From the sequence record MT446409.1: a stretch of 53,453 nt of DNA. The stretch is one strand, 5' to 3'. Below, one piece after another: positions 1 through 53,453 of the stretch. This DNA is from Escherichia virus TH37. Numbering within the stretch: the first letter of the stretch is position 1; every line of letters starts with the position of its first letter. The notes beneath the pieces were generated by a model that saw only the letters and a list, made by a program, of their open reading frames with translations, was not told where the DNA came from and did no database searches. The translations under genes and the position numbers were made by a program.

Positions 1-543
1 AGATATTGAGTACCAGAATATTGAGCATCTAAGCAAAAGCCTAAACGAGTATCGCATTCACCCGTTGTCTCAACCTTTAACCAATCCAAAGCCAGACGAA
101 CATAAGTGAATGGCGTAGAAGGACGTTCAGCTTTAGGCATGTTCATCATGCGAGCAAGTGAACCAGCTGGATTCTGAGCAACATAAGTTAAACGCTTAGC
201 AGAAGTCCAGTCTCCACCGGAAATATCTTCCAGCTCTGCCATAAACATGTTGTATGCAATGGTAGTAGAACCATCTTCGTTAAACTTCTTAACGATGTTC
301 TCAACATTGTGAGAATACAAGCAACGAGCAAAGTCAGATGATTGTGGGTTAGGACCAGCACATGCTACATGGTACAGACGACCACGGTTATCAGCAAAGT
401 AGTCAGAGAACAGAGTGTCCTGACCAACCATTGCTACAGCATTGTTCCAAACATGGAGTTCAGTCTGGATTGCTTCTGGCATCTGCAAGCCACCATAAGT
501 ACGTTGTTCAATCATAGACTGGATGATGCGAACCATCTCAGTC
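1..543. repeat. Direct repeat of window end 52911-53453 (wrap-around of circular or terminally redundant genome)
   Basis: Positions 115-543 identical to 53025-53453; positions 1-114 differ at about 11 sites from 52911-53024. Confidence 0.9.
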
Positions 544-1217
544 TCCACATGGTACTCAGTATCTTGCAGGAATTCGATTGCAGCTTTCAGAGTCTTGGAT
601 GGCTTAACTTTGCCACCTTTAACGAAAGGCTTGCGACGAGATTCAGTTGTTACACGCTCAGTGAATGGAACTGAGGTATCTTTGGTTGTAACCAGTTCAA
701 CCCATGCGTCAGTCATCTGGAACGATTTGTCCTCGTTCATGGTGATGAAGCCAAAGTGCTTAGCTAAACCAATGAGGTTGATAGCTGGGTCAACATAGTG
801 CATTGACTTTAAGTCGTTGTTGTAACGGTTGGCATCAGCAATAGAAGAAGAAGCCAGCTCAACCATTGCAATGGCTGGGACAACATCATCACGAGTGAAT
901 GAGGTCATCATCTTGAAGATTGCGAGAGCAGCAATAGCACAGGTCTGAGGCTGCATATAGTTCTGTTTCTCTTTGGCACGGTATACCAGAGCCGTGATAG
1001 CAGGGACAACGGATTTGATAGTTTGAGTTGAGATAGTTGTCATTTTGCGAGTCTCCAAGTTAGTTTCGGTTTTAGTTTCGGATTGTGTAGCAGCAGTGAT
1101 TTCGTTAACCATTTGGTTGCAACGGTCCATCGTATCAAGCACGTCTTTCCAACCGTGGCCTTCTTCTTTTAAGCGAGCGCCATCAGCAGCCAGTGCACGA
1201 TATTCTTCATTAGTCAT
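1..1217 (-). CDS. T7-like single-subunit RNA polymerase, N-terminal part (gene runs off the window start; continues at 52013-53453 if the genome is circular)
   Basis: Minus-strand frame open from 1289 to 1; contains ...FADNRGRLYHVACAGPNPQ matching T7 RNAP FPYNMDWRGRVYAV; ATG at 1217 has GGAGA 5 nt upstream (alternative ATG at 1044); motif A-like LDAQYSGTQYL at window edge. Confidence 0.8.
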   Translation of the reverse strand, partial: MTNEEYRALAADGARLKEEGHGWKDVLDTMDRCNQMVNEITAATQSETKTETNLETRKMTTISTQTIKSVVPAITALVYRAKEKQNYMQPQTCAIAALAIFKMMTSFTRDDVVPAIAMVELASSSIADANRYNNDLKSMHYVDPAINLIGLAKHFGFITMNEDKSFQMTDAWVELVTTKDTSVPFTERVTTESRRKPFVKGGKVKPSKTLKAAIEFLQDTEYHVETEMVRIIQSMIEQRTYGGLQMPEAIQTELHVWNNAVAMVGQDTLFSDYFADNRGRLYHVACAGPNPQSSDFARCLYSHNVENIVKKFNEDGSTTIAYNMFMAELEDISGGDWTSAKRLTYVAQNPAGSLARMMNMPKAERPSTPFTYVRLALDWLKVETTGECDTRLGFCLDAQYSGTQY

Positions 1218-1279
1218 GATAGTCTCCAATTGATTATGATTTAACTGAAACGGATTAGACTTGCGTAGCCTATTCATAA

Positions 1280-1295
1280 TCACAACCAACTAATG
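1280..1295 (-). promoter_or_regulatory. Conserved phage promoter-like motif (gene-sense CATTAGTTGGTTGTGA), copy 1, 63 nt upstream of RNAP start
   Basis: One of 8 intergenic copies of a 16-mer, plus-strand consensus TCACATCCAACTAATG, all in the same orientation. Confidence 0.5.
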
Positions 1296-1824
1296 GTGAG
1301 ACTAGCTCATTACAACAGCGTGCTCTGATTGCCCTTGACCTTGACCCACTACCTAACTTGGTGTTGTTTGAAAGCCGATAGGCTGTAGAAAAAGTTGGGG
1401 TAGGGACCGTATTTAAGTCCGATAGGACGTTGGGCTTCCCCTCCCCGCCACCTCAAAAATAAAAAATAATATTAGGCGAACAAAGTGAGCAATTGCCACA
1501 ATTCTAGTCTCATTAATATTGTAGCAATTCGAGTCTCATTAATTCCGTAACAATATTTAAATTAAAAAAAAATTATATAAAAATTTTTATAACATAGTCG
1601 GACTTCTGTTCGAACAAATTCCGGCTAGATACAGCTGACCGACCATTTACCATTTGGTTTTGAACTTTACGCATTCCTAATATTACTCTAATATTGTAGC
1701 AATATTGGGAATAAGTAATATTGAAAACTTACTTATTTTATTCTAGCTCAAAGAGAAACGACGCTAACGCATCGAATCTCTTCTCACATATTAACTGACA
1801 AACGTCAGCCTTCACCATATCCAA

Positions 1825-2943
1825 TCATAATTCAAATCCACCCAGAGCATTGGTATCAACTTCGGAGTCAATTTGCCCAACCAGGTAGGAACTAATCTCC
1901 GTTTCCTGTGGAGCAACTTGTACAGCATCCGAATTCAACCATGCGTTAATCCATGGAATAGGATTCGTAGCACCTTTGAATGGGGCATCCAATCCAACTG
2001 CTTGCATACGAATATTCGTGATATATTCGACATATCCGCACAGAATTTGCTTGTTTAAGCCAATCATGGAGCCATCTTTGAACAGATAATCGGCCCAATC
2101 TTTCTCTTGTTGGGCAGCATCTTCGAACAATTTCTGGCATTCTTCGCGGCATTCTTGGGCAATTTCACCCATTTCTGGGTCATCTTTGCCACTCACCAGG
2201 ATATTCAACATGTGCTGAGTTCCAGTCAAATGGAGTGCTTCATCTCGTGCAATCAGTCGAATAATCTTGGCATTTCCTTCCATTAACTTGCGTTCAGCGA
2301 AGGCAAATGAGCAAGCAAAGCTAACATAGAAGCGAATTGCTTCAAGTGCGTTGATAGACATGAGGCATAAATAGAGCTTCTTCTTCAACTCACGAAGACT
2401 GATTTCATGACCAGCATGGTTCCCTTCTCCGAACAACTGCCATAATGCGGTTAGTTCTTGAAGCTCGTCATAATATTGGGAGATGCCAATTGCTCGTGCT
2501 TTGATATGCTCGTTAGTTACGATTTCATCAAAGATAATGCTTGGGTCTGTAACAATATTACGAATGATGTGGGTGTAAGAACGTGAATGGATAGTCTCGG
2601 AGAAAGACCAAGTTTCAATCCAAGTTTCAAGCTCAGGAATGCTCACAATTGGAAGCAAAACTGTGTTCGGTCCACGTCCTTGAATTGAGTCCAGAAGGAT
2701 TTGATATCGCAAATTACTGGTGAAAATGTGCTGTTCGTTTGCTGGAAGCTTCTGGTAATCAATACGGTCTTGTGAAACATCTACCTCTTCCGGTCTCCAG
2801 AAGAACGACAATTGTTTCTCAATCAACTTCTCAAATATGCCATACTTCTGCTGGTCATAGCGAGCAACGTTGACGTTCTGACCAAAGAACATTGGTTCTA
2901 ATAATTGGTTATTCTTGGTTTGTGAAAAGGTAGTGTAAGACAT
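1825..2943 (-). CDS. nrdB: Ribonucleotide reductase class Ia beta subunit (NrdB)
   Basis: 372 aa collinear with and near-identical to E. coli NrdB as recalled ([14 protein letters not shown]..., ...[21 protein letters not shown]). Confidence 0.95.
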
Positions 2944-13604: not shown

Positions 13605-13646
13605 CTATTGAAATTAATACATGTTCAAATAATATTAAAGAGGAAT

Positions 13647-26055: not shown

Positions 26056-28091
26056 GCCGAGTAGTTGGCACTTGGGCCTGAGAATTCGATTGCAACCATA
26101 TCTGAAACGTTATCGACACAATCGTCGTGTCCAGTACCACTACCCAAAGAAGTGAATCCAAGTATTTCACGTCTAACGTGGTCAATGTGTTCATGACCAG
26201 CAGGGAAGAATATCCTCTTTTGGGAGAAATATGGGATTGCGTTAAGGAATCGAGTTACCTTGTCATTACCGTTAATGCCATCACGAGGCAGTGGTAAAAC
26301 TCGGACACTCCCATCTCTAATAAATTGTTGGTTTAAGAATTGTCCAGCAGACTTATCTTCCATGTACAAAGCACGAGGAATACAGCCTACAGATTTCAAA
26401 TCCAACTTGTTGCATTTGTTCCAGAAGTCGATGATAGCAGTCTTGAGTTCTGGAGTTTCAAACTTGCCGAGCATGATATCTAAACAATATACATCACGCT
26501 CTTTAGTCACGCCCCAATGCTTAAGGACCGAATAGTCAGAATAAGACTTGGCAGTTGATGCCGTGTCAGCAGTGATGAAACTTCTAACTATGCGACTTCT
26601 GTCGAAAGCGTCTGGCTCATACTCTTGCCACCAATCTTCTTTAACAAGGCCATGACCTTGAGCAGATGGGTCGCCAGCATACTGTGAATTGTATGTGTAT
26701 GGGTTCGACTCTTTCATTGCCTCCAGAGATTCTAAACTCTTACGTGAAGGCCACAATGCAGACTTCTCTTCTTTCCTGTTCAAATCATAGAGAATAGGGA
26801 TAGCATGAGTGTAGTTCTGCTTCTTAATTAATTTGTCGTACCACTGAGCACTGCCAACACCTTTCTCAATAATCGCTGGGATATTGAGATAATGGTATTT
26901 ATCGGAGGAACCACCACGGAGTATATAACCAACTAAATCTTGGTCATGAACTCGCTGCATGATGATAACCATTGGAGTACGTGAGCACTTGATTTGGTTT
27001 CCACGCGAATCGGTTATGCACCCATCATTGGCAAGACGGGACATAAAGGTGTTATCAAATCGGTCGTTGATTTCTGCTCGAACTGTGTCGGAGTAGGCAT
27101 CCTTCGGCTTGATAACGTCATCCACCACAAAGCAACCAGAGTAGTTTGCAACGAGAAGTCCAGCACCTTTACCAGTCAGCTTACCGCCAGTAGGTACTGC
27201 GTGCATAACTCCAGCTTTGGTCGTACCCCAGCGTTCAAGAGAACGTTTGTTTGGGTCGATTCTCACCTTCGGGAATATACGTTGGAACAGTGGGTCCATC
27301 ATCACAGCACGAATGTAACCACTCGATTCAAGAACAACGTCTTCTGCATACGAGGTGATAATGTTATGGCTTGATTCATTGTGGCAAAATGAATACAAGG
27401 GCAATGCAATACTCATAAGCTGGGTCTTAGAGTGTCGTGGGGGAATGGTCACTATTAAGCGGTCAATCTCGCCATCAACAACCTTCTGGCCAACACTGAA
27501 TATTACATCGTGAAAGTCTTGTGCTTGAAATGGAAATCCCATCTGAATATGGAACTGCCATTTACCAAAGGCTTCGAAACTTTTCATCAAGATTTTGCGA
27601 ACACGTTCTGCAACCTTGGCAGGGATTACAGTTGGGTCCACGTTATGTGGGTCATGCAGAATCTTGTCTACAAGTTCGTCGGTGTTATCATGTTCCGAGT
27701 TTGGCTCCTCCAATGTGGAACCTGCAACACGGTCAGTAACACCTGCTTGAATACCTTTCTTCAACTCGTCGGCATACGCAGTCGAGTCTTTCTTGTCGCC
27801 AGAGCGAAGACGCTCAAGTTGTGCTCTGAAAACGGAACGCAATACAGCATCGTTTTCAAGACCCTGGCCTTCTAACTCTGCTTGAATTTGTTCTTCATAG
27901 CTGTCAACTATCGCAGAGTTTTCTGAAATATATCGACGGAGCAATGGCAAAGATAGAATGCAGAATCTTTCTCTTGAGACTTTTAAAACGTCACCGTAGT
28001 GTTTGGCCAGATACGTGGCAATAGTATCGTCAAACTCGGGTCCAAGATTTTCAGTCTTTGACATTGATTCGTTCTCTTTGGTTTTAATCAC
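26046..28091 (-). CDS. Terminase large subunit
   Basis: 681 aa; deviant Walker A (PPRHSKTQ), Walker B-like CFVVDD, C-terminal acidic nuclease-like region; precedes portal. Confidence 0.6.
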   Translation of the reverse strand: MIKTKENESMSKTENLGPEFDDTIATYLAKHYGDVLKVSRERFCILSLPLLRRYISENSAIVDSYEEQIQAELEGQGLENDAVLRSVFRAQLERLRSGDKKDSTAYADELKKGIQAGVTDRVAGSTLEEPNSEHDNTDELVDKILHDPHNVDPTVIPAKVAERVRKILMKSFEAFGKWQFHIQMGFPFQAQDFHDVIFSVGQKVVDGEIDRLIVTIPPRHSKTQLMSIALPLYSFCHNESSHNIITSYAEDVVLESSGYIRAVMMDPLFQRIFPKVRIDPNKRSLERWGTTKAGVMHAVPTGGKLTGKGAGLLVANYSGCFVVDDVIKPKDAYSDTVRAEINDRFDNTFMSRLANDGCITDSRGNQIKCSRTPMVIIMQRVHDQDLVGYILRGGSSDKYHYLNIPAIIEKGVGSAQWYDKLIKKQNYTHAIPILYDLNRKEEKSALWPSRKSLESLEAMKESNPYTYNSQYAGDPSAQGHGLVKEDWWQEYEPDAFDRSRIVRSFITADTASTAKSYSDYSVLKHWGVTKERDVYCLDIMLGKFETPELKTAIIDFWNKCNKLDLKSVGCIPRALYMEDKSAGQFLNQQFIRDGSVRVLPLPRDGINGNDKVTRFLNAIPYFSQKRIFFPAGHEHIDHVRREILGFTSLGSGTGHDDCVDNVSDMVAIEFSGPSANYSAWM

Positions 28092-28269
28092 AATCCACTA
28101 ATGGCTGAGTTTGCACGGGATTGATGCGAATGATGTTGCCCAAACTAGAATCGGCCTTTAAATACAGGCGGTTTAGTGGCATGTATGAATCACAGATAGG
28201 ACATTGTTGGGTGATGAAATCATCCTCTGCCACTTCATAATGGCAGTTACTACATTGAATTGTGCGCAT
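28084..28269 (-). CDS. Small zinc-ribbon protein
   Basis: 61 aa with CSNC...CPIC. Confidence 0.35.
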   Translation of the reverse strand: MRTIQCSNCHYEVAEDDFITQQCPICDSYMPLNRLYLKADSSLGNIIRINPVQTQPLVDCD

Positions 28270-31026: not shown

Positions 31027-31037
31027 TCCAACTCCAA

Positions 31038-32481: not shown

Positions 32482-32522
32482 TTAAACTCCAAATTAAAGG
32501 CTCCCGAAGGAGCCAATTATAG

Positions 32523-33386: not shown

Positions 33387-33413
33387 TTTGAGTACCTTTA
33401 AGTTTCAGTTTGG

Positions 33414-33686
33414 TTAATCCACTTGCAACATTGCAAGGCGGAAGTCATATCCAACTAATGCTTCGGACAGCTCTTCAATTGAAGTTGTTGCCGAGATTAA
33501 AGTTTGGAGGTTTTTGAATGTCTCATCGTTAAATGCTTGAGACTGTGGGTCAGACGAAGCGAACACCTCGCCCTTAATCTTTTCAAGGAACGCCATTACG
33601 GCGTCCTTTGCTGGAACTTCGGAATCAGCAGCAAACATATGGTGCTCTAATTCCTGCATATCGAAAATAGAATATACAGTTTGCAT
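33414..33686 (-). CDS. Hypothetical protein
   Basis: 90 aa co-oriented ORF. Confidence 0.3.
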   Translation of the reverse strand: MQTVYSIFDMQELEHHMFAADSEVPAKDAVMAFLEKIKGEVFASSDPQSQAFNDETFKNLQTLISATTSIEELSEALVGYDFRLAMLQVD

Positions 33687-35620: not shown

Positions 35621-35686
35621 AGTATGGCTCCAATGGATTTGGTGAGGTCTACGCTGGTGGGCGAACCATGCAGCGTAGAAGCTCTG

Positions 35687-37450
35687 TTATTGATGTGGAC
35701 CGTTCTTCTTAGTAAGTTGAACAATCTCTTTGGTTTCGAACAAGGAGTCGTCCCAAGAACGTTGAATGATTCGACCAGAGTCTGAGTCATAATACGTCTT
35801 GAAGCCTTCTGTCTTACCACTCTTACGAGCTTTGATAGAACGAATGATTGAGCAGTTTGGGTCTACTGCCTGGCTATTACGCTCAAAGCCAAACATGCCA
35901 TGAGAATACTTAGCAGCAGCACGAGAGCCAGTAAAGTCTGACTTCTTGATTCGTCCACCATCTTCATGAGGTCGCTGACCTTTTGCCACAGGGTTAAGGT
36001 GCGACAAAATATTAACATGGAACTGATATTGGTCTGCCAGCTTAGTAATGTCTGCATACAGCTTGCCTAAGAAGTCGTTCTTCTCTGAGGCAGAAATCCC
36101 TTCCGATAAGTAGGTTAAGTTATCAAGAACAAACATATCAATGTCTGGACCAATCTGACGAAGAATCGTCTTTAACCCATCCCAAGTTTCATAAGGGTCT
36201 TCTCCAGCTTGCTTTCGGTCCCAAATCTCCATGTTACGAAGCATCTTCGCAGCAGTCTGACGGAACTTCGCTTCATCGTATCGAGGGTCTTCACGAGTAA
36301 ACGCAGGTTCCCAATACGGCAAGTTGTCGTTGAGGCCAGCCATACGGCGTAATGTTTCCGCAGGAGTTTCCTCCATGTATGCAGTAAACACTCCCCAATC
36401 ATGCTGAATGATGTTGTGATGCACAATCTGACGGGACAGGGTAGTTTTACCACCACCTTCTGCACCACCGATTGTAATAACTTCGGCTCGACGTTGACCA
36501 AACATTAAGTCGGTTAACTTGGGCCAAGGATAATCCACACCTTGTTCAACCTCATCATCAAGCTCTTCCATAAGAAGTTCTTTGTTGACAAGTGCTGTAG
36601 GTAGAGGACGGGCAGCACGGAATACAACAGCAGACTGAGTAGCTTTCAGTAAGCCACGTTTCAAACAGTCGTTGGCATCGTTGGCAGGAAGTGTGGCAAT
36701 CATTGCACCAGGCAGTAAACGACACGCTTCCTTTGCAGCTTTACGACCAGGTTCATCATCATCAAATACGATAACAACCTGCTCCCAACGTTGCTTGATT
36801 TCTTCTGCAACTGGTGACAAACATTTGTGTACGGAATCACTTCCATCACTCAAACTAATTACAGCAAAATCCAAATCTTCATATGCACCACCACGGTTCA
36901 TAGTTTTGAGGATTTGACGCAATGCGATACAGTCTTCTTCACCCTCTGTGATGAACAGAGTCTTACCGCCAATTGCTTTTGCAGCCAACCAATTGTAGGG
37001 TTCGTTGCCTTGTGTGTCACCAACCGACCACATAACTTTCTTGTTCAGAAGTTTAATCTTCCAGCGAACAAGTTTGCCATTCTTGGTATATCCATGGGCC
37101 AAGGCATTTGGAGTCTTGCCATCAAACTCTGAATAGAGTAGGCGAACACCAGCAGCTTTCCAGAACTCCGGTTCAATACTGCGATGGTCTAAATCAAATG
37201 GAGGGCACGAGGTTATTTCGTCAATTTCTTCCTGAATTTCTTCTGGAGTCTTGACTTTAATTTCCGGAATATTCTCCGGATTATTGCCGTACGGATTCGG
37301 AACGAGAACGCCACATGCAAAGCAGTAACCAGAGAAGTTCTTATTACCAGCTTCATCGACATTCAACCAAACCTGTAAAGACTTGCCAGATGTGGATTTA
37401 CAGTCTGGTACATCGTGCTTAATCTTGGCAACACATTGCTTGACGTTCAT
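35687..37450 (-). CDS. Primase-helicase (T7 gp4-like)
   Basis: 587 aa; N-terminal Cys4 zinc ribbon, TOPRIM-like middle, Walker A GGAEGGGKTT. Confidence 0.8.
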   Translation of the reverse strand: MNVKQCVAKIKHDVPDCKSTSGKSLQVWLNVDEAGNKNFSGYCFACGVLVPNPYGNNPENIPEIKVKTPEEIQEEIDEITSCPPFDLDHRSIEPEFWKAAGVRLLYSEFDGKTPNALAHGYTKNGKLVRWKIKLLNKKVMWSVGDTQGNEPYNWLAAKAIGGKTLFITEGEEDCIALRQILKTMNRGGAYEDLDFAVISLSDGSDSVHKCLSPVAEEIKQRWEQVVIVFDDDEPGRKAAKEACRLLPGAMIATLPANDANDCLKRGLLKATQSAVVFRAARPLPTALVNKELLMEELDDEVEQGVDYPWPKLTDLMFGQRRAEVITIGGAEGGGKTTLSRQIVHHNIIQHDWGVFTAYMEETPAETLRRMAGLNDNLPYWEPAFTREDPRYDEAKFRQTAAKMLRNMEIWDRKQAGEDPYETWDGLKTILRQIGPDIDMFVLDNLTYLSEGISASEKNDFLGKLYADITKLADQYQFHVNILSHLNPVAKGQRPHEDGGRIKKSDFTGSRAAAKYSHGMFGFERNSQAVDPNCSIIRSIKARKSGKTEGFKTYYDSDSGRIIQRSWDDSLFETKEIVQLTKKNGPHQ

Positions 37451-37455
37451 TTATA

Positions 37456-38106
37456 TTATTCCTGATTGGTCAAAGCCTTCCAGCAAATCGGAAACAGTTC
37501 TGACATAATTTTATTCACTTCTTCCGCAAACAGGCGAACTTCATATTGCGCATGTTCGGAGGAACGTTGATTGTACATGGATGCCCAGCCATAAAGGGAG
37601 CCAGTCCAAACCCACTCAGTCATCATGGATTGTGGCAACACCATGCGAGCTTGCTCTGGGGCAATCCCCAAACCAATTAACGTTTCATATTCTGCAATGC
37701 AAGCCTTGTTATGGCTTTCCATACGATAATGAATATCGTCGGCAAAATCTTGTGGCAACGGTTGTGCAGTCTGAGTCATCAACTTCTCAGGACGACCGAG
37801 TACAACATCTGGTACAAAGCATTCAATCGAGATTGCTTCACCATCTTTGTAACGACGGCTAACTTCATTCCAGCTAAAGCCGGTTTGATGTTTGCCAAGC
37901 TGACGTGCAATGAAGATTGGAGCTTTGCAACGCAATGTTACCTGTGAGTGGCGAAATGGTGTAATGTGCTTATGCTTTGCAAGAAACTCAATCAGCTTCT
38001 CGTCACGCAAGGACATTTCATGCGACTCTGCACCATAGGAAACTCGTGCAGCATTAACAGTTGTAAGGTCGCTTCCCATGCTATCTACTAGTGTGGCAGT
38101 AATCAT
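37456..38106 (-). CDS. thyX: ThyX-family flavin-dependent thymidylate synthase homolog with altered RHR motif
   Basis: 216 aa collinear with ThyX (VDSMGSDLTTVNAARVSY, HITPF, KAPIFIARQ, SRRY, SEHAQYE), but KHQ where the RHR motif is expected. Confidence 0.7.
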   Translation of the reverse strand: MITATLVDSMGSDLTTVNAARVSYGAESHEMSLRDEKLIEFLAKHKHITPFRHSQVTLRCKAPIFIARQLGKHQTGFSWNEVSRRYKDGEAISIECFVPDVVLGRPEKLMTQTAQPLPQDFADDIHYRMESHNKACIAEYETLIGLGIAPEQARMVLPQSMMTEWVWTGSLYGWASMYNQRSSEHAQYEVRLFAEEVNKIMSELFPICWKALTNQE

Positions 38107-38162
38107 TTGCTCTCCGGTTCATATGGTGGGAGATAAATTAGCTCCGCACCATGATAATGGTA

Positions 38163-38384
38163 TTATTTTAATGACGCCTGTAAAGACGCATTTAGTACAG
38201 AACGCTTTTCATATTCGCGCTGGTTGTACGTGTTTGTCAGTGCTTCCGCAGCTTCTATTGACAGAATTGCAAAACCACCAAAGGCGTTGCGAACTTCTTC
38301 AAGATTCAGATGCAGTACTTCACTGGTAATTTGGTTGGCTATTACAGCCTTGAAAATCTCTTCGGCAATTTCAGCAGTTTTCAT
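38163..38384 (-). CDS. Hypothetical protein
   Basis: 73 aa co-oriented ORF. Confidence 0.3.
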   Translation of the reverse strand: MKTAEIAEEIFKAVIANQITSEVLHLNLEEVRNAFGGFAILSIEAAEALTNTYNQREYEKRSVLNASLQASLK

Positions 38385-39170
38385 GTTTCTCTCCAGTTAA
38401 ATTTAAGTAAGTGCCCTGACGTGGACTATTACGAACATTACAATAAATTGGCTTAAATGGTGTTTCCACTGCGGCCAAGACACTTATTAAATTTGATTCG
38501 AACCGCCCAAGTGAATCAACCTTGTTTATGGGGACCATCGGGGAAAAGTATAAACCCGCTTAATGCTCGCATCATGTTTGAACATTAAGAACCCTGACTT
38601 GCATATTTCATGTGAATAGGAACATAGTCTGGATTTTGAATCCAGCTAACTTCGAGAAGAGGAGTAGCTCAAACGAAAGCCTGAACTTTCTTTCGACACA
38701 TCACAATCAGCGCAACTGAGCCGTATCGCTACGGTATGCCAGACGCTAACTTGAGCCTTTTGAACAGAGGCATAACTGTTGGAGGAATTCTGTGGCCTTT
38801 ACGCGGCCAACGTGCCATTAATGCTGGCAAGACAGGGCTACCGTTCCCAAGCTCCCTTATCGCGGTAAATACGGACACTGTTTTAGGAAGTGACCACCTG
38901 AACGTCTCGTGTTCATTACGTTGACTTTACGGAGTCATCGGAGCTTCGTTCTCAAGCACACCGTTTTCTTCTTTGGCCGGTGTCAAGCCGCAAGCCTTTG
39001 TTTCGGTGGACTAACCTTCTCACACTAACGATGTGTAGCGGGACGTTCCAATCCTAGGAGGCAGCAATTTCAATTGTTATGCCCAGAGCAATTGCAGGAA
39101 TTACACCTGCCATGCTACAAGTAGCTAGAGTCTCGTTATTTAAAGTCGCGCACTCCCTCGACTTGTTCAC

Positions 39171-39380
39171 TCACTGTCGGGTAAGTTTCGAACACTTTTG
39201 TGCCCACGTTTCATTGTGGACTAAAATCTGGGTTTTGGTTTCGCGTGACAAAACTTTCACTTCTGCAACATCCAAATAGATCGGTTGTGCAATCAAGCAA
39301 TAATCACTTACGAACCCACTTTGAGAGCAACTCACTATCGACATTGCTATCAGAACTGCTAGACACTTCTTTCTGAACAT
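39171..39380 (-). CDS. Putative o-spanin (Rz1-like outer membrane lipoprotein), overlapping i-spanin in another frame
   Basis: Internal start MFRKKCLAVLIAMSIVSC with lipobox-like IVSC; starts inside and extends past the Rz-like ORF; weak SD. Confidence 0.3.
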   Translation of the reverse strand: MFRKKCLAVLIAMSIVSCSQSGFVSDYCLIAQPIYLDVAEVKVLSRETKTQILVHNETWAQKCSKLTRQ

Positions 39381-39540
39381 GCGATTTAATCTCGATAGAT
39401 TCTTTAATGGAATCGAATTGCTTCTCTTTGGCTTCCTGACGCTCCTCGGCTTTGCCTGAGCTTTTGCCTTTGAGGAACACTGCAATAATAATACCCAATG
39501 CAGTAAGGACGCCAAGAATAATTGACTTAAGCTGTTGCAT
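39304..39540 (-). CDS. Putative i-spanin (Rz-like): N-terminal TM plus charged periplasmic segment
   Basis: 78 aa; TM SIILGVLTALGIIIAVFL; SD AAGGTG upstream. Confidence 0.4.
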   Translation of the reverse strand: MQQLKSIILGVLTALGIIIAVFLKGKSSGKAEERQEAKEKQFDSIKESIEIKSHVQKEVSSSSDSNVDSELLSKWVRK

Positions 39541-39548
39541 GAATCACC

Positions 39549-39689
39549 TTAGATGGCGCACGCACCACTTGAACAGTCGTTATCACCAGCACCAGGAACG
39601 ATTGCTTCTTCGTCCTGCTTCTTCTTCAGTTCTTCAATTGCTTCTTCGGCAGCACCGAAGTCTAAGTTATCAAGTGCATCAAAATCCAT
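39549..39689 (-). CDS. Mini-ORF whose C-terminus matches the class Ia RNR alpha (NrdA) C-terminal redox tail
   Basis: 46 aa MDFDALDNLDFGAAEEAIEELKKKQDEEAIVPGAGDNDCSSGACAI; last 17 residues ~10/17 identical to E. coli NrdA ...LVPSIQDDGCESGACKI as recalled; GGAG SD upstream. Confidence 0.35.
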   Translation of the reverse strand: MDFDALDNLDFGAAEEAIEELKKKQDEEAIVPGAGDNDCSSGACAI

Positions 39690-39719
39690 AAGGACTCCAG
39701 TGTTGCGGGTTATTAAAGC

Positions 39720-39815
39720 TGGTGGACAAGGTTGGATTCGAACCAACGACACATCTGTCGAACAGATTGCTCTACCTGACTAAGCTCTGGAGCAGACCTT
39801 CTGAGCTACTCGTCC
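39720..39815 (-). tRNA. tRNA-like element (anticodon-like loop UCG), atypical: ~21-nt extra segment between acceptor stem and D-arm
   Basis: Minus-sense GGACGAG-TA-...-GCTTAGTCAGGTAGAGC-...GTTGG-TTCGAAT-CCAAC-CTTGTCC-A-CCA: 7-bp acceptor stem, canonical T-arm, encoded CCA, but 96 nt long. Confidence 0.4.
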
Positions 39816-40652
39816 GAATAAGGTGGGTTTTGGTAACGCAGGTTTTCCCGAACTGCGAGGCTTGTAGCAAGACAGCCGCATTACTTTGCGAATGCCAGCA
39901 GGATTGATGGTCCGACCGTCTTTGCTTAGGCAACCTGATTTAATCTACCTTTGTAGATACCATCGGTTAGAGCAGTTTATTTCCATGCCCAGGGCAACTC
40001 ACTTTAGGGTGAATTAGGTTACGCAGTGTAGCTTCGAAGTCGCTGCCACAGGCTTGAGATTCCTGTGTGGAGGGAAATCCAGAGGAGCACTTCCTCAAGG
40101 AGTTACGTTTCACATTGGCATAGCTTCTCACACTAAACCAATTGAAGACATTCCAGTGTGCTCGTCCGTCCTCCGGAAATATCCAACTGCATAATTAAGT
40201 TTGTACTCTGTCACATCCTACACGCGCGCTCTTAGGACTTAAACTGGCTTGCATCGCAGAATACAAATTAATTATTGCTCCGATTTATTAATCACATCTC
40301 GAAGCCACAATGCGCCAAATTTGGTTACATGGGATTGGAAGACCACGGAGAGGACTTAAATTTAATTAAGCCGCAACTCGCATTTCAGAATCATTTGCAT
40401 TTATTTTAAATGAATAAAACAGTCGCAATAACTTCAGGCAGTTTAGGCCCGTCGTAAGACTCAGAAAACTACTTCAATTTGTACACAACAAATTTCCCAA
40501 CATTGACCTCCGTCGAAGTCTCATGCGATGGTGTTTGGGTTATGCACAAATTGAAGCCCACTCACTCGGAATGGGATTCAAGGCAGCACCGGAAATCTTC
40601 CAGTGCGTGCCAGATCGATTTAGCTTAGCTTCTCAAGTTTGCTCTTGGCAAC

Positions 40653-40991
40653 TTAGAATACCGGAGCTTCTTCAACAGCAGCTTCTGCTACTACAGCAGC
40701 AGCTTCTTCTTCGACCTTAACTTCTTTCGGAGTATCGAACGCAACACGTTCAACTTCCGGACAACCAGCTTCAACCCACGGCAGGTAGAATGCCAGGAAT
40801 GCAGCAGCGGTATTGGTCTGCATTGAGCGAGAACGGTCAATCAGCTTGTTGGTGTTTGCGAACGCTTCAACAGCAGCTTCAATTTTAGCGCCGTTTTCCA
40901 GTTTAAAATCGTGTGCGTTACACTCAGCTTCGCTCAGGAACAGGGAACCATCGTTAGCTTCGTACTGAGTTACGGTTACAATCTTAGCCAT
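40653..40991 (-). CDS. Hypothetical protein with acidic Ala/Glu-rich C-terminal tail ending in Phe
   Basis: 112 aa; C-terminus KVEEEAAAVVAEAAVEEAPVF; promoter motif 78 nt upstream. Confidence 0.4.
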   Translation of the reverse strand: MAKIVTVTQYEANDGSLFLSEAECNAHDFKLENGAKIEAAVEAFANTNKLIDRSRSMQTNTAAAFLAFYLPWVEAGCPEVERVAFDTPKEVKVEEEAAAVVAEAAVEEAPVF

Positions 40992-41068
40992 TTGTATATA
41001 CCTTATATTAAATAGTTTTGCACGCCACGGTGACGTGACTTAGATAAAATTAAAGAGCCTTTCTCTTT

Positions 41069-41084
41069 TCACATCCAATTAATG
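41069..41084 (-). promoter_or_regulatory. Conserved phage promoter-like motif, copy 2
   Basis: Plus TCACATCCAATTAATG. Confidence 0.5.
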
Positions 41085-41114
41085 TGTCAGGACTGCTCTG
41101 ATTTAACAAACAAC

Positions 41115-41789
41115 TCAATACATATTGAATCGTTCGATTGTTTTGATTACCAAATCCTTTGTCTCATCGACAGTGAGTTCAGTGATGATTGATTCGTCAT
41201 AACCCTCAATCTGGATTGCTACAAAACGCCCAACACCTGTTACGGTAAGTCGGTTAGTTCTGTCACGAACAACTACACCAGCTTCTTGCGCGACTGCTCG
41301 CAACAATTTCCAGCGTAAAGTTCGGTTTGGTACAGCAAAGCCCTTTGTCAAGAACAACTCTTTCATGAGTTCCCCGAGGCAAACAGCTTCAATGTTTTGT
41401 CCTCTTCCAACCAATTCTTGCAACAGGCACAGCGTCAACATTTCTAAATTGTTGAAGTGACCAGCGCGCTCCAAATTAAAGAACTCTGGAGGAACAGTTG
41501 AACGAGATTTAACAGCCTGCTTATATGCACGTTCTTCTTCCTGTGCAGCAAGCATTAGCATCTCTGGCTTAATGTACTTCATAGCAGAGAAGCCAGCGCG
41601 TGTGGCTTTAATTATGCGACAAGCCTCTTTCATCTTGTAGCGTTGCCACTCGCCGCGCTTCGATTCTGGATTAAAATGGACCCACATAATGATAACATCT
41701 TCCTTGGCAAGATAGACGGCATCATTATCATTGAGCCATTGCTTACACGTTGATAGTGCAATCTCTTTGTCATCATCATGATAAGACAT
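41115..41789 (-). CDS. Hypothetical protein
   Basis: 224 aa co-oriented ORF. Confidence 0.4.
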   Translation of the reverse strand: MSYHDDDKEIALSTCKQWLNDNDAVYLAKEDVIIMWVHFNPESKRGEWQRYKMKEACRIIKATRAGFSAMKYIKPEMLMLAAQEEERAYKQAVKSRSTVPPEFFNLERAGHFNNLEMLTLCLLQELVGRGQNIEAVCLGELMKELFLTKGFAVPNRTLRWKLLRAVAQEAGVVVRDRTNRLTVTGVGRFVAIQIEGYDESIITELTVDETKDLVIKTIERFNMY

Positions 41790-41790
41790 T

Positions 41791-42081
41791 TTAGTGGCCT
41801 CTTAGGATTCGATTATTTGCAGTTTCTGCATCAATTCCCAAATCAACTAATGTAACCAAGCACTGCGAAATCCGCTCTTGCGCAGCTTTCTCAATGATTT
41901 GGTATTTTTCGTTGTCAACGCCTAACACATTCTTGGCATGAATGAGTGTAGCCATTAGGCCATGACCCAAAGCAACAGCTTGCATTGCCTGGAGTTCAAA
42001 GTTGATTGTGATACCAGCGAGTTCGTGCTCTTTCTGGATAATCTCAATCAACTCTTCTTTGGATTTATCTTGTAAGTTCAA
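41791..42081 (-). CDS. Hypothetical protein
   Basis: 96 aa. Confidence 0.35.
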   Translation of the reverse strand: MNLQDKSKEELIEIIQKEHELAGITINFELQAMQAVALGHGLMATLIHAKNVLGVDNEKYQIIEKAAQERISQCLVTLVDLGIDAETANNRILRGH

Positions 42082-42688: not shown

Positions 42689-43237
42689 CGTAGCCCAACC
42701 GTTTGTGTCAATTCTGGATAACTGCATTGGCGAAGGGTTACTCCCGTTAGGGTGCGACCTGCGTATCATAACTGCGCCGCAGCCTGGCAAGCTACGGAGG
42801 TCACAGAGGCTTTGTAACCCTTCCCAATACATTCACCCAAATCCCAGCGTTGGCATAGCTGGTGGCTTGGTTTTGTGCGGATTATGCCACTCTAAGCCCT
42901 GTTTGTCCGACTTCCTCGGAGCACCAGCAGCTTGTGGCACAAACCTATTTTCGAATGACAAGCATACAGATGAGTCTGCCGCATCACGGCTCCTGCTGTT
43001 CTATTGGCCCCAAAAGCCTCAGTATCTTGTACCAATTCATCCCAATACATACACAACTATATACAATAGCGAACTATCTGCGAATAAGTATTCTGGCCCT
43101 ATGGCCTAAGTTAAAGTTAATAGTGTGTGATGGAAACATTCCATCGAAAATAACTTTGTAGAATGAGTCGAACATTCTCGCACGATGCGGCCGCAACGGT
43201 CTACCGAGTTACAAAGTTATTATCTGATGTTGTTTCT

Positions 43238-43253
43238 TCAATTCCAACTAATG
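43238..43253 (-). promoter_or_regulatory. Conserved phage promoter-like motif, copy 3
   Basis: Plus TCAATTCCAACTAATG. Confidence 0.45.
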
Positions 43254-43323
43254 TTTCAGAATTATTCCAATATTCCAAACAAAAAGAATAATAAGAATAA
43301 ATTAAAATAAATGAAGAAAGTGC

Positions 43324-43353
43324 TTGACACCCATTTGGCGATAGGTGTATAAT
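43324..43353 (+). promoter_or_regulatory. Near-consensus sigma70-type promoter on the antisense (plus) strand
   Basis: TTGACA at 43324-43329, 18-nt spacer, TATAAT at 43348-43353. Confidence 0.4.
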
Positions 43354-43378
43354 GCCTTTCTTCCCTAAGTGGTCAGAA

Positions 43379-43394
43379 TCAAATCCCACTAATG
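43379..43394 (-). promoter_or_regulatory. Conserved phage promoter-like motif, copy 4
   Basis: Plus TCAAATCCCACTAATG. Confidence 0.45.
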
Positions 43395-43464
43395 TTTCAG
43401 ACTAAAGCCGAAGGCCAATGCGAGTACAAAACCCGCTTGGCACTTCGAAGAAACCCGCCTGGAA

Positions 43465-43701
43465 CTACAGTGCTTTCCAATCTGAGTCAAACAGTTCCTT
43501 TGGTCTTGAATAAATTATCGAATCAACACCAAAGAAGGTATGACTTCCATACTTCTTAACTTCCTGGTACGCAAACCCATCCACCCAATTACCGCAGTGG
43601 GTTTTAATCTTTGTAGCAAACAGGATTCGATAGTAGTGGCCGCGTGGCTGGTGGAAGAGAATATCTTCTGGCTTGATTGAGTTAATATTTAAATCACACA
43701 T
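43465..43701 (-). CDS. Hypothetical small protein
   Basis: 78 aa co-oriented ORF. Confidence 0.35.
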   Translation of the reverse strand: MCDLNINSIKPEDILFHQPRGHYYRILFATKIKTHCGNWVDGFAYQEVKKYGSHTFFGVDSIIYSRPKELFDSDWKAL

Positions 43702-47315: not shown

Positions 47316-47331
47316 TCACATCCAACTAATT
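47316..47331 (-). promoter_or_regulatory. Conserved phage promoter-like motif, copy 5
   Basis: Plus TCACATCCAACTAATT. Confidence 0.5.
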
Positions 47332-47368
47332 GGATTATTCGGGTACACTCGTAAATGCACCCTGATAA

Positions 47369-47821
47369 TCATTTACAGATAAATACCGGAATATCCATCT
47401 GGTTTAAATACTTAAGCATAAGTGGACGTACTTGTGTTGCATAGTCCAGCTGCCCATTTCCACAACCAAGTGGGGTTATTGCAAGTGAGGTTATTCCACA
47501 GCGTTTGTAGGTTTCCACCAACTTAACAAGGCCCTGTTCAATCCACCCAAGTTGAGAAGGATTTTGCCAATGTTGTTTTGTTGGGAAACATAGCCCAAGA
47601 CGGCCATCATTAAGACGCTGCAACAGCAATTGCCCAATCTTGAATCCACGGTTGCACGCAGTTCTGTAGTTCTTAAATGCTTCTGGATAGCGGCGTTTAT
47701 ACTCTTTTGCAACACCAGCACCCATTACGCCAACAAGATTCACAGTACAAGTTACAGTTTGCGCATCCACAGTAAATACGTTGGCCTTACCTTCAAATAC
47801 GATTGGCATAATCTTCTCCAA
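47369..47821 (-). CDS. Macrodomain protein (ADP-ribose binding/processing)
   Basis: 150 aa; VNLVGVMGAGVAKEYKRRYPE and ITSLAITPLGCGNGQLDY match macrodomain signatures. Confidence 0.65.
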   Translation of the reverse strand: MEKIMPIVFEGKANVFTVDAQTVTCTVNLVGVMGAGVAKEYKRRYPEAFKNYRTACNRGFKIGQLLLQRLNDGRLGLCFPTKQHWQNPSQLGWIEQGLVKLVETYKRCGITSLAITPLGCGNGQLDYATQVRPLMLKYLNQMDIPVFICK

Positions 47822-47831
47822 AAGTTGTTAT

Positions 47832-47847
47832 TCACATTCAACTAATG
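47832..47847 (-). promoter_or_regulatory. Conserved phage promoter-like motif, copy 6
   Basis: Plus TCACATTCAACTAATG, ~15 nt upstream of macrodomain gene SD. Confidence 0.5.
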
Positions 47848-47888
47848 TTAGATTAATCAGGAACACTCAATGAATGCTCCTTGTTAAT

Positions 47889-48086
47889 TTAACAGGATTT
47901 ACAATCGTTTATGAACTTTCTACGCAATTTGCGCACTTGCTTTTTGGTCGGCTTCGCTGGAAAGAATTTGCATTCGACGTTGTGCCAAGGACTGCATTCT
48001 TCACCAACAAACCACAGAGTCCATCCAGCAAATATGTTCATAGGACTGTGGCTTTTGTGGCTATACAAATGTGTATTTACACGCAT
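47889..48086 (-). CDS. Hypothetical small protein
   Basis: 65 aa co-oriented ORF. Confidence 0.25.
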   Translation of the reverse strand: MRVNTHLYSHKSHSPMNIFAGWTLWFVGEECSPWHNVECKFFPAKPTKKQVRKLRRKFINDCKSC

Positions 48087-50827: not shown

Positions 50828-51029
50828 ATATAGTATTCCTGTGTGTGCCGCCATCATGGACTTCCTAGTCTGGTGGGCGCGTTGCAATCCAGCAATAAAC
50901 CACACGTTTTTCACAGGCTATATATGTGACACATAAAGTGCCGAAAACTACAATGATTAGCTTGGAGACATAATCTCTCTAAAATCTGTCACAGAATTTC
51001 AGCAGAATTTACAGAGATTTGGTCTTATT

Positions 51030-51045
51030 CACATGCAACTAATGA
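51030..51045 (-). promoter_or_regulatory. Conserved phage promoter-like motif, copy 7
   Basis: Plus TCACATGCAACTAATG. Confidence 0.5.
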
Positions 51046-51229: not shown

Positions 51230-51950
51230 TTTATCCCAATATTGTCACAATATTTACATGCGATGATAAAGCCTTCGCTTGGCTGGAAGCCAGTATTCAT
51301 GCGGGTTGCAAGAATATTGGGTGAATATTGATACATTTATTACATGCGAAATTGGCACAAATACTGTTACAAAATTAACATGCCAGATTGGTAGACGATT
51401 GTATCTTCGAGGTGATTAGTCCTCTAACAATTCTGCCACATTCTAACATGCCAATTTGTAGCAATATTTACATGCCATACTGTAGCAATATTGCCACAAT
51501 ATTTGTTGCTCAAAATCGGGGCGGCTTCTGCGTGAAAACGAGAGGCTTTGCTCCGACTCTTCTCTTCTTTCGAATTCTGATTGAAAGAAAGAAGCATGTC
51601 CAAAAGTTCCAATATTACAAAAGTTATCTCCCGGCTTGTGGGTGGGCCTTTATAATAGGAGATGAAGCAATATTGTCGCAATTGAACATGCTTTAGTTGA
51701 AGAACAGTTTCGAATGATAATCCTACTTCACACATGGTTGCTGGAACTTTGTCCGGCCAAAGACAGGGAGTTCAATGATTGCCACATCATTACAACGCTG
51801 TGTGTTTAGTTGACATGCTGAAATGTTTCTAGAATGATTTCAACATGACATGCGGAAGACTTCTCCGTATTCTGTTACTTCACATCCAACTAATGTCGAA
51901 TATTGAAACAATATTACATGCAGCAATATTGCTTGAATATTGGGAATTAA
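51230..51950. repeat. Dense array of short repeats (palindromic CAATATTG / GCAATATTGC and TTACATGC units) in non-coding region
   Basis: About 12 ACATGC copies and at least 10 AATATTG copies within ~900 bp. Confidence 0.6.
51881..51896 (-). promoter_or_regulatory. Conserved phage promoter-like motif, copy 8
   Basis: Plus TCACATCCAACTAATG (consensus copy). Confidence 0.5.
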
Positions 51951-52012
51951 AGGATTTAATTAATAAAGAATAAAGAAAGGGCCATCACCTTTCGATGACA
52001 GCCCTGTTTCTC

Positions 52013-53453
52013 TTATTGACAGAAGTAGTAAGCGTGTTCGCTCATCAGAAGCTCTTCAGTAACAATGTTCTCATGGTACATGTTGATGCCACCAAGTTGC
52101 TTAGACAGAGATTCAAACTGATTATTGTGAACAAAGATTTCAACATAAGCAGAACGAATTACTTCCATCATTTTAGGAGCATCAGCTAAGCAGCAACGGA
52201 AACAATCGTGAATTGAAGTAAAGCCACGAAGACCAGCTTCTTTAGCTTTGACTGCAACAGTACGAGCAACCAATGCGTCAATACCTTGAATGTAGTTAAC
52301 AACGAAGGTACGCTTGAATTCTTCTTTAGTTGGGTTGGACTCACGAATGGTCCAAGGCTTATTCTCCTGAATCTGACCAAAGATAACACGAGTTTGAGAG
52401 TCAACACGAATGCTGAATGCCTCACAGATTTCACGAGATGGGAAGCAAGGCTTCATTACAACCTGACCATCAGTGTGACGATATGTGATGTACTCTTTAC
52501 CAAGTTCAACACAACGATTGTATGCAGCATCAGCAGCTTTCTCGATGAACATGTTAATCTTAGCACCCAATGCGTTATGGATTGCTTCTACACAAAGTTC
52601 AGCAAATGCTTCTGCTTTCTCAACAGGAATCTGGAGAGATGCTGTCATGTATGCAATGAAGTCAGAAGAACCAGTTAATGCAGCTTTACCACCACCATAT
52701 TGGATAGCCATGTATGGAGTTTTGATAAACTTACGACCAGCTTTCGGATTCAAGAATTCATCCATGATTTCAGCAGATGGTTTCATTGAAGAACGGTCAA
52801 GCAACTTCAACAGTTCACGAAGAGATAACTGGTATGGGTCAGATGCTTTAGTTGATGAATCAACCAGACCTGTTGCACGAGCCATCTCCATGTTACCAGC
52901 AATGAATGCCAGATATTGAGTACCAGAACATTTAGCATCTAAGCCAAAGCCTACACGAGAATCGCATTCACCTGTAGTCTCAAACTTGAACCAATCCAGA
53001 GCCAGACGAACATAAGTGAATGGCTTAGAAGGACGTTCAGCTTTAGGCATGTTCATCATGCGAGCAAGTGAACCAGCTGGATTCTGAGCAACATAAGTTA
53101 AACGCTTAGCAGAAGTCCAGTCTCCACCGGAAATATCTTCCAGCTCTGCCATAAACATGTTGTATGCAATGGTAGTAGAACCATCTTCGTTAAACTTCTT
53201 AACGATGTTCTCAACATTGTGAGAATACAAGCAACGAGCAAAGTCAGATGATTGTGGGTTAGGACCAGCACATGCTACATGGTACAGACGACCACGGTTA
53301 TCAGCAAAGTAGTCAGAGAACAGAGTGTCCTGACCAACCATTGCTACAGCATTGTTCCAAACATGGAGTTCAGTCTGGATTGCTTCTGGCATCTGCAAGC
53401 CACCATAAGTACGTTGTTCAATCATAGACTGGATGATGCGAACCATCTCAGTC
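52013..53453 (-). CDS. T7-like single-subunit RNA polymerase, C-terminal part (N-terminus beyond the window end; matches 1-1217 across the repeat)
   Basis: DNRGRLYHV, motif A-like GLDAKCSGTQYLAF, motif B-like KTPYMAIQYGGGK, motif C IHDCFRCC collinear with T7 RNAP DWRGRVYAV / DGSCSGIQHF / MTLAYGS / IHDSFGT. Confidence 0.85.
   Translation of the reverse strand, partial: TEMVRIIQSMIEQRTYGGLQMPEAIQTELHVWNNAVAMVGQDTLFSDYFADNRGRLYHVACAGPNPQSSDFARCLYSHNVENIVKKFNEDGSTTIAYNMFMAELEDISGGDWTSAKRLTYVAQNPAGSLARMMNMPKAERPSKPFTYVRLALDWFKFETTGECDSRVGFGLDAKCSGTQYLAFIAGNMEMARATGLVDSSTKASDPYQLSLRELLKLLDRSSMKPSAEIMDEFLNPKAGRKFIKTPYMAIQYGGGKAALTGSSDFIAYMTASLQIPVEKAEAFAELCVEAIHNALGAKINMFIEKAADAAYNRCVELGKEYITYRHTDGQVVMKPCFPSREICEAFSIRVDSQTRVIFGQIQENKPWTIRESNPTKEEFKRTFVVNYIQGIDALVARTVAVKAKEAGLRGFTSIHDCFRCCLADAPKMMEVIRSAYVEIFVHNNQFESLSKQLGGINMYHENIVTEELLMSEHAYYFCQ

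Follow-up and report, generated by a model that had tools for sequence, protein, structure and literature searches.

The motif at 41069-41084 and its genome

On the plus strand, positions 41069-41084 read TCACATCCAATTAATG, which is one mismatch away from a motif that recurs in the window, meaning the whole stretch of 53,453 nucleotides of Escherichia virus TH37 (sequence record MT446409.1) that was analysed. The copy at this site heads a block of genes without known function. The window is a complete phiEcoM-GJ1-like myovirus genome (Chaseviridae, Cleopatravirinae, Carltongylesvirus; ~92% nucleotide identity). A 12-kb test segment (30000-42000) is ~91-93% identical, over most of its length, to the Escherichia phages SKA49, flopper and phiEcoM-GJ1 (hereafter GJ1) and to Yersinia phage PYps16N, and GJ1 aligns with most of the remaining window at 70-96%. 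All long open reading frames (ORFs) are on the minus strand, and downstream in the sense of the genes means towards lower coordinates. Functional labels of genes were taken from PHROGs and from the GJ1 annotation. Positions 1..543 repeat 52911..53453 at 98% identity, and this redundancy implies that the window holds a whole genome of ~52.9 kb with redundant ends, in which the gene for the RNA polymerase (RNAP) is split by the contig ends. The motif copies, the two parts of the polymerase gene and the main hairpin are collected in Table 1.

Table 1. Motif copies and associated features of the window, in the order in which the minus strand is read
Feature	Sequence or part	Position	Strand	Context
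RNAP, C-terminal part	C-terminal 477 aa (aa 170-649), palm and fingers	52013..53446	-	GLDAxxSGTQ and IHDCF catalytic motifs
Intrinsic-terminator-like hairpin	12-bp stem, then T-rich TTCTTTATTC	51978..52005	-	between RNAP stop codon (52013) and copy 51880
Motif copy	CATTAGTTGGATGTGA	51880..51895	-	the only perfect copy; first after RNAP gene and terminator-like hairpin; GJ1 promoter 1
Motif copy	CATTAGTTGCATGTGA	51029..51044	-	heads a run of small early ORFs; GJ1 promoter 2
Motif copy	CATTAGTTGAATGTGA	47832..47847	-	precedes a 146-aa phosphatase-like ORF by 22 nt; in a cassette absent from GJ1
Motif copy	AATTAGTTGGATGTGA	47316..47331	-	72 nt upstream of ssb (single-strand DNA-binding protein); GJ1 promoter 3; syntenic in five genera
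Motif copy	CATTAGTGGGATTTGA	43379..43394	-	leads a tandem pair within a gene-free region of 0.6 kb; GJ1 promoter 4
Motif copy	CATTAGTTGGAATTGA	43238..43253	-	completes the tandem pair, 141 bp downstream of copy 43379; GJ1 promoter 5
Motif copy (originally named)	CATTAATTGGATGTGA	41069..41084	-	77 nt upstream of a 112-aa ORF; GJ1 promoter 7; syntenic in five genera
Motif copy	CATTAGTTGGATATGA	33445..33460	-	1 mismatch; 58 nt upstream of a 287-aa ORF; GJ1 promoter 8
Motif copy	CATTAGTGGATTGTGA	28088..28103	-	3 mismatches; precedes the large terminase gene by 23 nt and heads the structural module
Degenerate motif copy	TATTATTTGAACATGT	13619..13634	-	between tape-measure-like and baseplate genes; position of GJ1 promoter 9
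Motif copy	CATTAGTTGGTTGTGA	1280..1295	-	upstream of the RNAP gene
RNAP, N-terminal part	aa 1-347	3..1043	-	gene split by the contig ends

The joined polymerase product is 646 aa and matches the Pfam family RNA_pol (PF00940) with E=4e-16, which is above the curated cut-off. When the polymerase sequence alone was searched against solved structures, no match was obtained, and a profile was needed: one built from six Chaseviridae polymerases aligns to residues 401-848 of T7 RNAP (E=5e-11) and places DAKCSGTQ (DAxCSG) and IHDCF opposite the regions of D537 and D812, the catalytic aspartates of T7. The region that precedes the polymerase domain is ~200 residues, about half of the ~400 found in T7. 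The claim of the sequence-only reading, a first inspection made from the letters and their ORFs, that a T7-like RNAP is encoded was therefore well founded, and by its sequence the protein is a true but very divergent and compact member of the single-subunit family. Its divergence and its short N-terminal region mean that the T7 mode of recognition should not be assumed.

Number and orientation of the copies

A search of both strands with TCACATCCAACTAATG, allowing three mismatches or fewer, finds ten copies in the window, all ten of them on the plus strand, where chance would supply 0.82 copies and the maximum among 100 dinucleotide-preserving shuffles was four. Because the genes lie on the minus strand, the motif in gene sense is 5′-CATTAGTTGGATGTGA-3′, and TCACATCCAACTAATG is its antisense reading. 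The core in gene sense can be given as 5′-CATTAGTTG-N4-(G)TGA-3′, and the motif-bearing sequence of the putative promoter, as it would be written for a transcription template, is CATTAGTTGGATGTGAAG. Conservation is nearly confined to the 16-mer; to either side of it only background information content remains, with a weak A- or purine-rich bias downstream as the sole departure.

A position weight matrix (PWM) of 20 positions, built from the ten copies, assigns them 23.4-29.4 bits when the window is scanned, well apart from the runner-up on their own strand (12.8 bits) and from the best site on the opposite strand (7.7 bits). Repeat discovery was also carried out by k-mer counts and by a search confined to intergenic DNA, and the unbiased 12-mer search of intergenic DNA returned the motif as the top family. 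The sequence-only reading had suggested a scan of this type, and the equal frequency in coding DNA or on the opposite strand that it had named as contrary evidence was looked for and did not occur. Its list of eight copies was accurate as far as it went: all eight exist, six with exact starts and two off by one (51030 and 51881 for 51029 and 51880), but the number was an underestimate, the copies at 33445 and 28088 having been missed. It had also described the copies as sharing the orientation of the genes; the eight do lie on one strand, but the string as it was written is the antisense one, the genes being on the minus strand.

Position relative to genes

Eight of the ten copies are intergenic, and the remaining two overlap the final codons of upstream ORFs. 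The copy at 33445 lies in the last codons of ORF 33414..33686, the ORF that follows the DNA polymerase gene, and that at 28088 overlaps the last codons of ORF 28084..28269. The eight copies that the sequence-only reading had placed between genes are indeed intergenic, with the one at 43238 falling within a 62-aa GTG ORF; as the same stretch is unannotated in GJ1, this copy was counted as intergenic. The further statement that the structural module holds no copy was nearly right: the copy at 28088 stands at the head of the module, and a degenerate TATTATTTGAACATGT (13634..13619), which is probably weak or inactive, scores under the PWM threshold. A further weak site lies at 41835..41854.

The distance from a copy to the next start codon preceded by an SD-like sequence is 22-290 nt for eight of the ten, so that the motif is not a ribosome-binding element or another translation signal. 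Copies 43379 and 43238 are followed by no SD-preceded ORF of at least 30 aa that starts within ~250 nt, and the first weak candidate (~30 aa) is found at 391 and 250 nt, respectively. The copy at 1280 precedes an in-frame ATG (1217) by 62 nt and the RNAP ATG (1043) by 236 nt, and it has weaker homologues in GJ1 (572), Faunus (51338) and Myduc (173). Besides the hairpin that follows the polymerase gene, stable hairpins occur at 47362..47341, before copy 47316, and at 47881..47859, before copy 47832. A 0.7-kb cassette (48086..47369) that is missing in GJ1 is bounded by duplicated units, each made up of a hairpin and a motif. A role for the motif itself as a structured RNA or terminator was considered and rejected, as the pairing state differs at every copy and folding z-scores range from -3.7 to +1.4; Rfam and ARAGORN searches of the window gave no match.

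Conservation in related phages

Four other Cleopatravirinae genomes representing four genera were compared with the window, namely GJ1, the Erwinia phages Faunus and Y2, and the Proteus phage Myduc. Over the C-terminal 477 aa, the identity of their RNAPs to that of the window is 68-93%, and each genome has 8-12 sense hits of at least 15 bits with zero or one antisense hit. The consensus is CATTAGTTGgATgTGA in the coliphages, CATTAGTTGgAt.TGA in Faunus, caTTAGTTGgATGTGA with CTTTAG variants in Y2, and CATTAGTTGaaaGTGA in Myduc; among individual candidate promoters, variants include TTGAGTGTGA in Myduc and CTTTAG in Y2. Syntenic sites precede ssb, the terminase gene and the RNAP gene, and others follow the RNAP gene, a 224-aa gene, the DNA polymerase gene and the tape-measure-like gene. 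Of six regions that were aligned, five have diverged around the motif, which stands out as the main invariant block; the flanks of the sixth, ahead of the terminase gene, are partly coding and for that reason conserved too.

A comparison of the window with GJ1 finds differences at 6 of 144 motif positions (4.2%) and at 138 of 1059 positions in the 60-nt flanks (13.0%; Fisher p=0.001), so that the motif has diverged three times more slowly than its surroundings. At six of the nine shared sites all 16 nt are identical; one to three positions differ at the remaining three. An exact-match scan of IMG/VR returned 28 loci, comprising contigs of 52-56 kb, a length typical of this phage family, together with unrelated contigs whose matches may be due to chance, and was thus uninformative.

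Spp001 and pAh6-C, members of the sister subfamily Nefertitivirinae, lack the motif, their maximum scores being 13.5 and 7.4 bits. The RNAPs of these two phages are 780-840 aa and 35-36% identical to that of GJ1. A search of both genomes for repeats and intergenic motifs found no replacement motif: the top repeat of Spp001, AGCAACTCGTTGGCC, proved to be a coding repeat inside a tail-fibre gene, the candidate in pAh6-C is a hairpin element, and neither resembles a promoter. The motif tracks the polymerase lineage by presence and absence only, and the co-variation of the two is only half demonstrated.

Probable promoters of the phage polymerase

The ten copies are most readily interpreted as promoters recognised by the single-subunit (T7-type) RNA polymerase that the phage encodes, a reading to which we assign a probability of about 0.85. 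The proposal of the sequence-only reading that they are candidate phage-RNAP promoters is thus supported at the level of sequence by the copies, their placement, their synteny and the presence of the polymerase. Leaving aside similarity to the T7-group consensus (best match 11/22, p=0.26), all of the sequence-level properties of single-subunit RNAP promoters that were tested are present.

From the observed statistics, orientation, placement and conservation of the motif, and from the presence of the polymerase, we infer a scheme for binding, start site and timing. The polymerase gene, situated at the genome end, would be expressed first, presumably by the host RNA polymerase. No consensus-like minus-strand sigma-70 site is found in window positions 1..2200, and the window has only a disrupted version of the sigma-70 promoter that the GJ1 record places before its RNAP gene. 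Downstream of the polymerase gene stands what appears to be a strong hairpin terminator, and the order of RNAP gene, terminator and perfect motif copy is that expected for a T7-style switch from host to phage polymerase. The phage polymerase would bind the motif as duplex DNA, requiring no accessory factors, and melt its 3′ part. By analogy, RNA would start a few bases downstream of the terminal TGTGA, in the purine-rich AG/AAGAAAC stretch; if the register is set by the match to SP6 (p=0.26), the 16-mer would occupy positions -17 to -2 and transcription would begin at the purine that stands two bases beyond TGTGA. Transcription would then proceed leftward in window coordinates through successive blocks, which would comprise the small early ORFs, ssb with the genes of nucleotide metabolism, the replication genes and, from the terminase copy, one long late transcript. 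A copy also precedes the polymerase gene (1295..1280), which suggests that the polymerase could promote its own expression by positive feedback.

Other explanations of the motif

Terminators, pause sites and RNA-processing sites would likewise be expected to be intergenic and co-oriented with the genes, and sequence by itself does not fully discriminate a promoter from a signal of this kind, acting on the upstream transcript in the manner of a T7 class II or RNase site. Several copies lie 5-15 nt downstream of stable hairpins, as is the case for copies 51880 (hairpin 52005..51978), 47316 and 47832; these hairpins are, however, separate elements that are missing at most copies, and the motif is not followed by a U-run. 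Copies that terminated transcription before the RNAP gene and before the 26-kb late module would block essential expression. The T7 class II signal measures 7-8 nt, and the conserved block of 16 nt is far longer. A role in termination, pausing or processing is judged highly improbable. Slightly less so, but still very unlikely, is the view that the motif is the site of a phage activator or sigma-like factor that redirects the host RNAP, as the T4 MotA box does, with the phage polymerase using other promoters. In its favour, many of the small early proteins are without known function, the phage polymerase is atypical with its short N-terminal region, and the likeness of the motif to known phage-polymerase promoters is not significant. 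An activator of the host enzyme would nevertheless be expected to leave a host -10 element at a fixed distance, and in five genomes the information content is at background on both sides of the motif and no sigma-70 -10/-35 hexamers (16-18 bp apart) are conserved at a fixed distance from it. A scan with the sigma-70 consensus gives only a weak 9/12 match overlapping copy 43238, with no promoter-like sites at the other copies. Moreover, the motif follows the polymerase clade, and no other repeated strand-specific motif was found that could serve the phage polymerase.

A function in DNA that is unrelated to transcription, such as recombination, cleavage by a homing endonuclease, packaging or replication, is the reading given the least credence and is judged highly improbable. 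It draws on the cassette at 48086..47369, whose bounding units place the motif at a recombination junction, on the several HNH endonuclease genes carried by relatives, and on the gene-free region in which an AT-rich tract has a motif copy on either side. Repeated promoters are nonetheless expected to give rise to recombination as a by-product, an origin primed from promoters as in T7 would leave them promoters, and ten co-oriented sites that are syntenic across genera and head gene clusters fit a transcription signal.

The gene-free region and its tandem copies

A gene-free region of 0.5-1.1 kb is present at the position of the tandem pair in all five genera examined. The interval that separates the two copies contains an AT-rich tract and, in antisense, a sigma-70 promoter of perfect consensus (TTGACA-N18-TATAAT, plus strand, 43324..43353) that is conserved in GJ1, Faunus and Myduc. 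The primary origin of T7, phi1.1A/1.1B, consists of two tandem promoters beside an AT-rich tract, and the arrangement in the window resembles it. By this analogy the pair at 43394..43379 and 43253..43238 might mark a primary replication origin that is primed or activated by transcription, although we regard this as a tentative and rather unlikely proposal; were it true, these two putative promoters would serve mainly replication and not gene expression. Two candidates for a product of the region were rejected. RNAalifold across the five genera gave only nine weak pairs for a putative structured non-coding RNA located after the tandem pair, and the antisense sigma-70 promoter is followed by an ORF for which comparison of the window with GJ1 shows no conservation.

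Earlier predictions and significance

The motif has a history in this virus group, and it is said to have been published as a prediction in 2008, in the description of phiEcoM-GJ1 by Jamalludeen et al. (Appl Environ Microbiol 74:516). The present finding is an independent rediscovery of a prediction already made for the group. The GenBank record of phiEcoM-GJ1 (EF460875, 2008) carries nine regulatory/promoter features, labelled putative phage promoter 1-9, whose sequences are this motif (for example CGACATTAGTTGGATGTGAA), with the same core and the same interpretation. For seven of the nine features a strong homologous copy exists in the window, and the whole-genome BLAST map, the site lists and the flank alignments agree on the homology. 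The window has no strong equivalents of promoters 6 and 9; promoter 6 is inside a coding region and weak in all genomes compared, and the position of promoter 9 is that of the degenerate TATTATTTGAACATGT. Copy 47832, within the inserted cassette, is extra relative to GJ1. The copies before the terminase and RNAP genes are present in both phages and unannotated in the GJ1 record, where position 26984 has the same sequence as copy 28088. What is added here is that the motif is conserved across genera, that two of its copies had gone unannotated and that the main rival readings are excluded.

The 2022 ICTV profile of the family states that promoters “have not yet been identified”, and a search of the literature found no mapping of transcript 5′ ends and no in vitro transcription for any member of the family. 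The discovery value is small, given that the motif was already predicted in 2008 and annotated in GenBank. If confirmed, the copies would make up the promoter set of a single-subunit RNAP from a myovirus family, an enzyme both compact (~647 aa) and very divergent, and the temporal programme of the Chaseviridae, several of which are candidate biocontrol phages of E. coli, Erwinia, Pectobacterium and Proteus, could be mapped. A validated pair of 16-bp promoter and polymerase would also provide an additional orthogonal transcription system.

Comparison with known systems

The MotA-dependent middle promoters of T4 are similar in that a short conserved box lies upstream of phage genes and is read after early proteins have been made. 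They differ in needing a host -10 hexamer at a fixed distance, of which none is conserved here, and in belonging to a phage that has no polymerase of its own.

The closer likeness is to the promoters of the Autographiviridae phages T7, T3, SP6 and K11, which are ~17-23 bp long and occur in many near-identical, co-oriented copies that head gene blocks, in genomes that encode a single-subunit polymerase and have a terminator after the early region. The T7-group consensus has an AT-rich segment at -17 to -13, TATA at -4 to -1 and a G start, whereas the motif lacks TATA at -4 to -1 and the GGGAGA start; among the T7, T3, SP6 and K11 consensus sequences, the best ungapped match is 11/22 (SP6), which shuffling shows to be no better than chance (p=0.26) and which served solely to suggest orientation and start site. 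Resemblance to the T7 group is also lacking in the validated divergent promoters of Syn5 and KP34, and it is not a defining feature of the wider family. Further differences from the Autographiviridae are the myovirus virion, the placement of the polymerase gene in a long terminal repeat in relatives such as Y2 and Myduc, the copy upstream of the polymerase gene itself, and the polymerase, which at ~647 aa against 883 aa in T7 has a T7 likeness that is detectable by profile search only.

Within the same virus group, eight consensus promoters for the phage polymerase were predicted in Pectobacterium phage PP101 (Lukianova et al. 2020, PMC6989608); compared by description, that work drew the same inference of phage single-subunit polymerase promoters and gene cascades. 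Validated promoters of phage polymerases number 18 in T7, 12 in SP6 and four each in LUZ19 and KP34 (PMC11880802), and the ten copies of the window are in keeping with sets of this size.

Elements accompanying the predicted promoter copies

Relative to phiEcoM-GJ1 (a member of the same genus), the window carries a 0.7-kb insertion with two ORFs: the first is 65 aa long, and the second, phosphatase-like (phrog_335, E = 6e-31), is 146 aa long. Both edges of this cassette are formed by duplicated units in which a hairpin is combined with a copy of the 16-bp motif, the predicted promoter of the phage's single-subunit (T7-type) RNA polymerase (RNAP), and this arrangement suggests that the genes were gained via recombination at the promoter repeats. 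The hairpin lies 9–11 nt upstream of the predicted ssb promoter copy and is kept in four genera, its stems varying with compensatory changes (GGGTGCA/TGTACCC, AGGAGCA/TGTTCCT, AGGTACA/TGTACCT and CTGTGTA/TACACAG). Its role, in combination with the predicted promoter, may be one of processing or termination.

The leader that follows the first predicted promoter copy, after the RNAP gene, contains two GCATGTCA boxes spaced 35 nt apart. These boxes are kept in all five genera compared, and the neighbouring sequence has diverged; across the genome, GCATGTCA occurs no more often than expected by chance. In Shewanella phage Spp001, of the sister subfamily Nefertitivirinae, AGCAACTCGTTGGCC is found eight times at 51593-54224 of the record; six copies are exact, the other two have 3 mismatches, and the flanks are conserved. 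This sequence was rejected as a regulatory motif of Spp001: every copy lies within the 3.6-kb tail-fibre gene, and the copies are coding repeats.

Positions of the features discussed in the window
Feature	Position	Strand	Remark
RNAP gene	3-1043 and 52013-53446	-	two parts at window ends
Overlap of contig ends	1-543 and 52911-53453		543 bp, within RNAP gene
Stretch lacking a phiEcoM-GJ1 counterpart	1043-1217	-	174 nt
Region of the phiEcoM-GJ1 sigma-70 promoter	1440-1560	-	promoter not kept
Gene-free region	42840-43465		contains antisense promoter
Region downstream of second tandem motif copy	42840-43237	-	about 400 nt
AT-rich tract	43256-43345		A+T 72%
Antisense sigma-70 promoter (predicted)	43324-43353	+	TTGACA-N18-TATAAT
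Duplicated hairpins of hairpin-plus-motif unit	47341-47362 and 47859-47881	-	one each side of cassette
Inserted cassette	47369-48086	-	0.7 kb
GCATGTCA boxes	51811-51818 and 51846-51853	-	leader downstream of first predicted promoter copy

The gene-free region with tandem motif copies

Flanked by the two tandem motif copies is a perfect sigma-70 consensus promoter that is antisense to all genes and adjoins an AT-rich tract. The promoter is also kept in phiEcoM-GJ1, Faunus and Myduc; the ORF downstream from it is not. Together, the predicted antisense promoter and the AT-rich tract could represent an origin-like arrangement or serve the production of an antisense RNA. Downstream of the second tandem copy, the sequence is without a convincing ORF. 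Some of its blocks are kept from genus to genus, for example AAGCTnnTnGGGCTGATAAT and an inverted repeat, GATGGAATGTTTCCATC. For this stretch, RNAalifold yielded no convincing shared RNA structure and Rfam returned zero matches.

The RNA polymerase gene and comparison with related phages

Immediately upstream of the RNAP start codon, and in the same frame, the stretch lacking a phiEcoM-GJ1 counterpart opens with its own GGAG-ATG and has TTGGAGACT repeats on its flanks. It may specify a 58-aa N-terminal extension of this phage's polymerase, or a separate small ORF fused by reading frame. The sigma-70 promoter annotated before the RNAP gene in phiEcoM-GJ1 is altered in the window, where the -35 hexamer TTGACG reads TTAATG and 21 nt are added between the hexamers; no consensus-like promoter was found on the minus strand over 1-2200. 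phiEcoM-GJ1 and ST32 possess a tRNA-Arg, whereas ARAGORN detected no tRNA gene across the whole window; according to a published report, only some members of the genus carry this tRNA.

The contig ends overlap with 98% identity (11 mismatches), and the overlap is probably a collapsed terminal repeat or the product of assembled strain variants. The relatives Y2 and Myduc have direct terminal repeats of 2.6-3.2 kb that include the RNAP gene. The polymerase, which was matched to T7 RNAP only when a family profile was used, is unusually small (about 647 aa versus 883 in T7), with the region preceding the polymerase domain roughly half as long as in T7. Polymerases of the sister subfamily measure 780-840 aa.
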